This document shows, piece by piece, positions 6,871 through 6,936 of a stretch of 64,000 nucleotides of DNA. Position numbers and translations under genes: made by a program. Positions within the stretch are counted from its first letter, which is position 1. Each line of letters starts with the position of its first letter. The notes under the pieces are model-generated. The model did no database searches. It worked only from the letters and a program-made list of their open reading frames with translations, and was not told the origin of the DNA. This stretch comes from Escherichia coli (GTDB taxonomy: Bacteria > Pseudomonadota > Gammaproteobacteria > Enterobacterales > Enterobacteriaceae): the NCBI RefSeq assembly GCF_017348835.2, contig NZ_CP071375.1. One strand, 5' to 3'.

Positions 6871-6936
6871 CTTACACATCAGTCACGCTGGTTTGAGATA
6901 AAGAATACCAGGTGTCTGATGAGTAAGCGTCTATTC
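6871..6936. repeat. Imperfect long hairpin element, copy 1 (paralogous to 11244-11306); possibly the yieH terminator
   Basis: cttacacatcag…ctgatgagtaag inverted arms; about 75% identical by eye to the second copy. Confidence 0.6.

Follow-up and report, generated by a model that had tools for sequence, protein, structure and literature searches.

The window, by which we mean the whole stretch of 64,000 nucleotides of Escherichia coli DNA that was analysed, carries a T3SS effector islet that follows adeP and yieH and is bordered, to the right of its last effector gene, by yieK', yieL and bglH in that order. The region is 100% identical to the chromosome of E. coli strain PE164. The locus is the Z5211-Z5214 islet (espY4, espX3', espY5'), which has already been published (PMC2646131), and in those parts of the effector literature that deal with it the islet genes go under the names EspY4 (ECs4653), EspX3' (ECs4654/4655) and EspY5' (ECs4657) (PMC5931665, PMC6313403). 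The features on which this analysis bears are, from left to right:

4682-6019, minus strand: adeP, which opens the gene order at the locus.
6186-6851, plus strand: yieH, with its stop codon at 6849-6851.
6795-6851, plus strand: 3' end of yieH assigned to the islet (last 19 codons and stop), ~65-70% identical to islet-free genomes.
6868-6930, minus strand: hairpin copy 1, with outer arms of 15 nt each at 6868-6882 and 6916-6930.
~6884-6891 with 6908-6914, minus strand: inner stem of hairpin copy 1, enclosing a loop of ~14 nt.
6988-9396, minus strand: espY4, a T3SS effector of 802 aa (name from the RefSeq annotation and PMC5931665).
9482-9573, minus strand: conserved upstream (promoter-region) block of module 1, 72-74% identical to 13951-14041.
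9705-10892, plus strand: espX3-like pentapeptide-repeat effector gene, between the two modules, with an internal stop in the window.
11121-11224, plus strand: decayed yieH remnant before hairpin copy 2 (tblastn E = 4e-7).
11241-11302, minus strand: hairpin copy 2, with outer arms at 11241-11255 and 11288-11302.
11304-11308, plus strand: T-run TTTTT directly after hairpin copy 2, present as CTTTT(T) in all copy-2 alleles.
11346-13868, minus strand: espY5-like paralogue of espY4, a frameshifted pseudogene in the window.
13951-14041, minus strand: conserved upstream (promoter-region) block of module 2, the right-hand limit of the homology between the modules.

The Z-locus of Sankar et al. 2009 is this same islet, and the passages of that paper devoted to it describe Z5211 and Z5214 as mutually homologous and the locus as AT-rich and without mobility or mobilisation functions (PMC2646131). 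Our finding is modest: it concerns a gene-linked 3' hairpin that was duplicated with its gene. Already published are the islet itself and the fact that its two large genes are homologous. In the main text of PMC2646131, a search by term for “duplication”, for a hairpin and for a yieH remnant returned no passage, and term searches in the islet and effector papers examined returned nothing on the hairpin pair, the yieH remnant or a junction within yieH.

Several properties of the islet in this strain can be recorded here. Two of its three effector genes are pseudogenised, the espX3-like gene by the internal stop and the espY5-like gene by the frameshift; N96 and Z142-2 are among the strains with intact versions of both, and espY5 is a pseudogene in many strains and intact in some others. 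The C-terminal coding regions of espY4 and espY5 (6988-7500 and 11346-11850) are extremely variable among E. coli strains, the pairwise diversity in 25-nt windows being 0.1-0.3 in the 3' coding region of espY4 and up to 0.47 in that of espY5, with far lower values in yieH and in intergenic DNA. In a collection of 5.8 billion proteins, the EspY4 of the window is at most 91% identical to others among the matches listed, and these matches (at least 120, at 87-91% identity) include no relative from outside E. coli and Shigella and so provide no outgroup context. The window strain also combines the Z5211-Z5214 islet with a complete bgl operon (bglGFBH-yieL-yieK'); in the literature the islet is described as replacing bgl. 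The islet is joined directly to yieK in only 14 of 5426 complete genomes (92-100% identity), and this suggests that the islet-yieK junction is an older state, a deletion in which could have given rise to the common islet-phoU form. Finally, a 42-nt fragment at 14266-14307 resembles a segment from within adeP (5663-5704; 86% identity, same orientation) and lies exactly at the point where homology with the common islet-phoU type ends (14263), i.e. the right junction of the islet in the window strain.

Each of the two espY modules has an imperfect hairpin just beyond the 3' end of its large gene. On the plus strand, 17 nt separate the yieH stop from the stem of copy 1, and not about 65 nt as the preliminary description of this DNA had it; on the minus strand, the hairpin lies 57 nt past the stop of espY4. 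Copy 2 is found 43 nt past the stop of the espY5 pseudogene (minus strand) and 16 nt past that of the yieH remnant (plus strand). Both hairpins are labelled here as minus-strand features because their variants keep pairing only on that strand, as detailed below. The two copies of the window are 76.7% identical over 90 nt and 73.6% over 125 nt, in agreement with the earlier description of two related elements with ~75% identity. That each copy folds into a long interrupted stem likewise held: on either strand the folds have z-scores of -4.4 to -6.8, and none of 200 shuffled sequences folds as well. The interrupted stem, of ~24 bp with a loop of 13-14 nt, has a stability of -22 to -33 kcal/mol. 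The TTTTT reported after copy 2 is also present, at 11304-11308. On the plus strand, the stem of copy 2 is followed by a U-run (CUUUUUCG) and that of copy 1 by a poor U-tract (CUAUUCCC), copy 1 having CTATTCCC at the position of the T-run. On the minus strand, no U-tract is seen 3' of either hairpin (UUGAAGUAAGG and UUGACGUUGGG).

Within the 64-kb window, the pattern CTTACACATCAG-N5-CTGGTTT matches exactly twice, at the two hairpins, when 0.01 matches are expected by chance. A covariance model made from 23 variants gives the same answer: the two hairpins match with 88 and 86 bits, and there is no third copy in the window, the next match having 12.6 bits and E ~0.8. The outer arms (ACGCTTACACATCAG) have no further match within the window either.

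The hairpins belong to a longer repeat. The homologous block spans 6817-6941 in module 1 and 11190-11313 in module 2, which exceeds the extent given previously, and its left end falls within the final 11 yieH codons. In frame, the 35 nt that precede copy 2 encode LWKGRSGDITI*, to be compared with LWKARGWNITR* at the end of yieH. A further yieH fragment is found to the left of this block, where 11139-11178 matches 6525-6564 with 80% identity; translated, the segment 11121-11183 matches YieH around residues 108-130, the tblastn hit before copy 2 covering residues 102-130 (E = 4e-7). The decayed gene before copy 2 thus lacks its N-terminal part, and an internal deletion of ~240 nt joins its first fragment to the last 11 codons and stop (11190-11224). 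This remnant is present in every islet variant examined. Homology between the modules falls into four stretches, namely the yieH fragment, the yieH tail with the hairpin, the espY coding sequence and the upstream box; espY4 and espY5 have 67-70% nucleotide identity in their N-terminal part (half), and their proteins are 31% identical in amino acids over the full length. Since copy 2 is preceded by a decayed yieH remnant, the duplicated unit included the 3' part of yieH: it consists of yieH 3' part, hairpin, espY and promoter region, with the hairpin internal to the unit and not at its ends. The proposal that a unit spanning hairpin, gene and promoter was duplicated is therefore supported, and extends further to the left than had been thought. 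Both copies go back to an old segmental duplication, and the second still has a dead yieH tail before it.

The upstream regions share a shorter motif. A box of ~21 nt, AATGAGC(K)ATTTTTTA(Y)AG in gene sense, occurs upstream of all three effector genes (9515-9545, 9625-9645 and 13981-14009), the espX3' copy being inverted relative to the espY copies, and small hairpins lie beside two of the boxes (9553-9572 and 14021-14036). In the sections of published transcriptomes that cover these genes, ECs4655 and ECs4657 are strongly induced by SOS-inducing antibiotics (PMC5931665, PMC4048457), among them sulfamethoxazole-trimethoprim (PMC5931665). A reading of the shared upstream box as a LexA box was rejected: only the CTGT half fits, the right half being GCTC and not ACAG.

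The preliminary description had also raised the idea that copy 1 was a pre-existing yieH terminator and that the island had inserted just distal to it. This idea is not supported, and three lines of evidence argue against it. Firstly, islet-free genomes, both of the K-12 type and of the B2 type, pass from yieH directly to cbrB, which in the K-12-type genome lies 66 nt after yieH, and copy 1 is absent after yieH in both types of locus. A local alignment of the K-12 yieH-cbrB spacer with the hairpin has a score of 9, no better than chance (353 and 395 of 1000 shuffled sequences reach it). Secondly, the B2-type genome JA0072 carries a yieH allele that is ~97% identical to that of the window from 6060 to ~6794; from 6795 onwards, JA0072 turns K-12-like, and the window diverges from both, with 65-70% identity up to the stop and none after it. 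This sequence comparison places the left junction of the islet inside yieH, at ~6795. With islet-specific DNA starting inside yieH, the last 19 yieH codons and the hairpin are both islet DNA. Thirdly, the polymorphism of the hairpin favours the espY-sense strand, as described below.

The passages of Sankar et al. 2009 on the locus treat yieH as a flanking core gene, whereas the junction found here is within it (PMC2646131). A junction inside yieH and a second, dead yieH tail within the islet suggest that espY already adjoined yieH in the source and that the islet entered by homologous exchange with such a source rather than by insertion. A boundary in the adeP-yieH spacer, taken from the comparison with K-12, was discarded: the comparison with the B2 type identifies that step as a property of the K-12-type allele, and the boundary as ~6795. 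In E. coli, yieH exists as two deeply divergent alleles, the K-12 type and the window/B2 allele being 78.5% identical in nucleotides and 84% in amino acids in the 6060-6794 region. Over the same interval, window and B2 type are ~97% identical, and the adjoining adeP is 98-99% identical. This split of yieH alleles looks like an old recombinational import in one lineage.

To assign a strand to the structure, variants of both hairpins were collected from complete genomes and from a metagenome scan, which together gave 86 instances and 24 distinct cores, 23 after trimming. Most variants were supplied by the metagenome scan, whose pattern held 14 flank/loop bases fixed and allowed only transitions in the stems; the set so collected overestimates conservation, the comparison of G>A with C>T being unaffected. 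Seven paired positions are polymorphic among the 23 variants, and all seven are G>A on the plus strand (G15A, G35A, G36A and G56A in copy 1; G27A, G55A and G62A in copy 2), with no C>T. Five of these events recur in several independent samples, the other two being singletons. In the flanks of the same loci (~1400 columns), G>A amounts to 0.28 per G and C>T to 0.34 per C. Without an excess of G>A in the flanks, mutational bias does not explain the ratio of 7 to 0, for which p is ~0.004 given an expected share of ~0.45, or ~0.02 with the five replicated events.

A G>A change on the plus strand converts a G-C pair into A.C in the plus-strand RNA, but into G.U in the minus-strand RNA. On the minus strand, the seven pairs that vary on one side thus persist as G.U, with 90.4% of all cells paired; on the plus strand, unpaired cells occur in nine pairs and the paired share is 85.3%. 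RNAalifold yields a consensus of -25.7 kcal/mol with 21 pairs and no broken cells for the minus strand and one of -12.3 kcal/mol with 15 pairs for the plus strand. The minimum free energies of individual variants range from -25.5 to -33.3 on the minus strand and weaken to -18.5 on the plus strand, and the mean fold of copy 2 is -28.5 kcal/mol on the minus strand versus -21.8 on the plus strand. Two changes in copy 2, A66C and T59A, turn mismatches into G.U pairs, and do so only on the minus strand. The plus strand is favoured at one inner pair, which is C-G in copy 1 and, in copy 2, G.U on the plus strand but A.C on the minus strand; no fully compensatory double change occurs in the arms among the 23 variants. 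From this pattern, which is consistent but made up of few events and is not proof, we infer that selection has acted on the minus-strand structure, i.e. on that of the espY-sense RNA. Strain N96 has the same inner-stem G>A change (CCAG to CCAA) in both copies (9001-9075 and 13359-13432 of its locus), and in other samples this change is confined to copy 2; its presence in both copies of N96 could be due to parallel mutation or to conversion over a very short tract.

These data bear on the alternative that the hairpin is a Rho-independent terminator of the plus strand, copy 1 ending yieH and copy 2 being a leftover that perhaps ends read-through from espX3, with the minus-strand signal incidental. 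The location fits, the stem standing 16-17 nt past the stop of yieH or of its remnant in both copies and having been duplicated with the yieH tail; the base of the stem is G+C-rich (ACGC/GCGT), and the U-run CTTTT(T) is conserved after copy 2 in all alleles. However, it is the live yieH that has the poor U-tract (CUAUUCCC), the good U-run being behind the dead gene, and every polymorphic change in the stem weakens the plus-strand fold, whose RNAalifold consensus is the feeble one of the two. A loop of 13-14 nt on a stem of ~24 bp would also be atypical, and a simple scan for the terminator consensus calls neither copy. In addition, the yieH of islet-free genomes leads directly to cbrB without a hairpin of this kind, and between espX3 and copy 2 there is another, small hairpin with A/T-tract flanks (11080-11102). 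We consider this alternative unlikely. A secondary role as terminator of plus-strand transcripts is possible, given the U-run of copy 2 and the poor U-run of copy 1. As for the small hairpin at 11080-11102, it lies between espX3' and the yieH remnant, is perfect in the window (ACAGACT/AGTCTGT with a 9-nt loop; z -3.8 and -6.0), has A-rich (11073-11079) and T-rich (11103-11109) flanks and looks, from its sequence, like a bidirectional terminator; its stem is imperfect in other islet variants read.

The second question is whether the structure has been selected at all. When the majority sequences of copy 1 and copy 2 (41 and 43 instances) are compared, the 15-nt outer arms are identical at 30 of 30 positions, and the rest of the block, which includes the dead gene tail, loop and flanks, at 80 of 114 (70%; arms versus rest, Fisher p = 1e-4). 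Identity outside the outer arms is 25/35 in the yieH tail, 12/16 in the spacer, 9/12 and 6/8 in the two inner stem halves, 9/13 in the loop and 19/30 in the downstream flank. The 33-34 nt between the arms are diverged (24/33 identical), so that a single gene-conversion tract cannot explain two identical arms. The arms of copy 2 are perfect even though the piece of yieH before it is dead. Within E. coli, the hairpin is about as diverse (0.03-0.07) as yieH and the dead remnant, and no less so than the remnant; the espY 3' coding regions are more diverse, with values of 0.1-0.47. As this within-species diversity is not distinctive, the argument for selection rests on the comparison of the paralogous copies, which shows statistically, at the level of sequence, that selection has maintained the hairpin in each of the two.

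A functionless relic of the duplication, with arms identical by chance or through short-tract gene conversion between the copies, would be the alternative here. It would account for a within-species diversity similar to that of the adjacent dead yieH remnant, for the frequent pseudogenisation of espY5 and, as a possible small conversion, for the same G>A at homologous stem positions of both copies in N96. We nevertheless find a relic improbable: arms identical at 30 of 30 positions stand within surroundings of 70% identity, and the diverged sequence between them would require more than one tract. Moreover, the copy-2 G>A is shared with copy 1 in only one of four loci, and the stem substitutions are directional (seven G>A, no C>T). 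That copy 2 is retained although espY5 is a pseudogene in many strains was counted against our main reading, given below.

Selection might also act on a DNA-level palindrome, the 15-bp arms being recognised as double-stranded or extruded DNA by a binding protein or as a recombination site. What is conserved in the arms is the sequence itself and not just the pairing, no compensatory double change being found, and G.T pairs are tolerated in single-stranded DNA hairpins, so that the strand asymmetry does not by itself require RNA. Yet a double-stranded operator would not predict tolerance of only G>A on one strand, and the hairpin is internal to the duplicated unit, with no attC-type R boxes flanking it. 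The islet contains no recombinase, transposase or integrase gene, in line with the absence of mobilisation functions noted in the passages of PMC2646131 on this locus. The palindrome thus appears to us a rather remote explanation. An integron attC site in particular was rejected, as no R boxes (RYYYAAC/GTTRRRY) could be read on either strand and no integrase is annotated in the islet copies.

The distribution of the element follows that of the islet, which about one in five E. coli genomes carries between yieH and yieK/phoU. Of 5426 complete E. coli genomes, 1108 have the hairpin by blastn, at 2198 places in all, with at most two per genome and none on plasmids; copy 2 as the query returns the same counts of genomes and places. 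The 4318 complete genomes in which the element is missing are those that lack the islet, and all hairpin loci that were read lie in the Z5211-Z5214 islet. Only one copy is found in 18 genomes, and in the one of these that was read (MB53) the central part of the islet, between IS1 and IS4 elements, is gone through an IS1/IS4-mediated deletion; on this example, the idea that single-copy genomes represent a state before the duplication was rejected. An exact scan for the outer arms in one genome for each of 100,044 species gave two matches, both on contigs of E. coli islet DNA in a Collinsella metagenome-assembled genome, and hence pointed to no donor species, with the proviso that exact matching could miss diverged versions. 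The two Collinsella sp. contigs (JAIJJM010000244.1 and JAIJJM010000384.1) are 93% and 90% identical to window positions 9029-13475 and 5888-8986, respectively, and look like binning contamination. An Rfam scan of 6000-15000 gave no match at E <= 1. The preliminary description had conceded that membership of a common dispersed intergenic repeat would make the two occurrences coincidental; with at most two copies per genome, in the islet only, this objection does not apply. A dispersed intergenic repeat or MITE family (REP/BIME, ERIC/IRU) that happens to occur twice here is hardly credible, for although the element is, as in those families, an imperfect palindrome in a transcribed intergenic region, it is missing from the 4318 islet-free genomes, never exceeds two copies, is found in the window only twice both with the pattern and with the covariance model, and matches neither Rfam nor, in the exact scan, the genomes of other species. 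An individual MITE or other mobile element was likewise rejected: the only two copies are both embedded in a longer duplicated segment, and no direct repeat was noticed at the hairpin ends on reading.

Together, these results lead us to favour, with moderate confidence, a reading in which the paralogous hairpins of the islet are a selected 3'-UTR stem-loop of the espY4 and espY5 mRNAs, the function being deduced from strand, position and conservation. In bacteria, mRNA 3' ends can be protected and defined by hairpins that are left after Rho-dependent termination and exonuclease trimming, and REP sequences act as stabilisers. In the same manner, the stem-loop would define the 3' ends of the espY mRNAs and protect them against 3'-to-5' exonucleases, after termination or processing further downstream; since the minus strand has no U-tract, it is read as a 3'-end structure and not as a canonical intrinsic terminator. 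It might further limit the overlap of the espY transcripts with the convergent yieH transcript and, being of more than 20 bp and hence in the range of RNase III, could possibly be a processing site. The supplements of two EHEC RNA studies contain no published 3' ends or sRNAs at this locus.

A more novel proposal, on which the hairpin would be more than an end structure, makes it a sequence-specific regulatory module of EspY-type messages, for example a target of RNase III retroregulation or a place where a protein or small RNA docks. It would account for arms that are perfect to the letter in spite of proteins with 31% identity, and for their retention behind pseudogenised copies; we regard it as doubtful. 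Most likely, the hairpin is an ordinary end-of-message structure and not a new kind of element.

The consequences are threefold. The left boundary of the polymorphic bgl versus Z5211-Z5214 locus is redrawn, with a junction inside yieH and a second, dead yieH tail. The hairpin pair offers a natural example of how a strand can be assigned to a palindromic element from one-sided polymorphisms that preserve G.U pairs. Finally, it is a candidate cis-element for the post-transcriptional control of two little-studied effectors, EspY4 and EspY5.

Among known systems, REP elements differ from the hairpin in that the latter is restricted to one islet, with two copies per genome, and does not appear to have the REP consensus. 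The same holds for the copy number of REP/BIME or ERIC/IRU families: we find at most two places per genome in 1108 of 5426 genomes, and K-12-type loci are without the hairpin. Rho-independent or bidirectional terminators share with it a convergent intergenic site, a G+C-rich stem base and, in copy 2, a plus-strand U-run. Unlike them, it has no U-tract on the strand of the conserved structure and no A-tract upstream, its loop is of 13-14 nt where 3-8 nt are usual, and the U-tract of copy 1 is degenerate. Retroregulation of the lambda sib type, in which a 3' hairpin is cleaved by RNase III, resembles the interrupted 3'-UTR stem of more than 20 bp seen here in form only. The hairpin resembles gene-terminal stem-loops: a stable hairpin lies tens of nucleotides past the stop, between convergent genes, with its structure on the sense strand and no need for a U-tract. 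Compared with these, the stem of ~24 bp and the 14-nt loop are longer than usual, and a stabilising role is a candidate only. As in cis-acting 3'-UTR stem-loops, pairing is kept on one strand, in few independent events, and the arms are more conserved than their surroundings between the paralogous copies.
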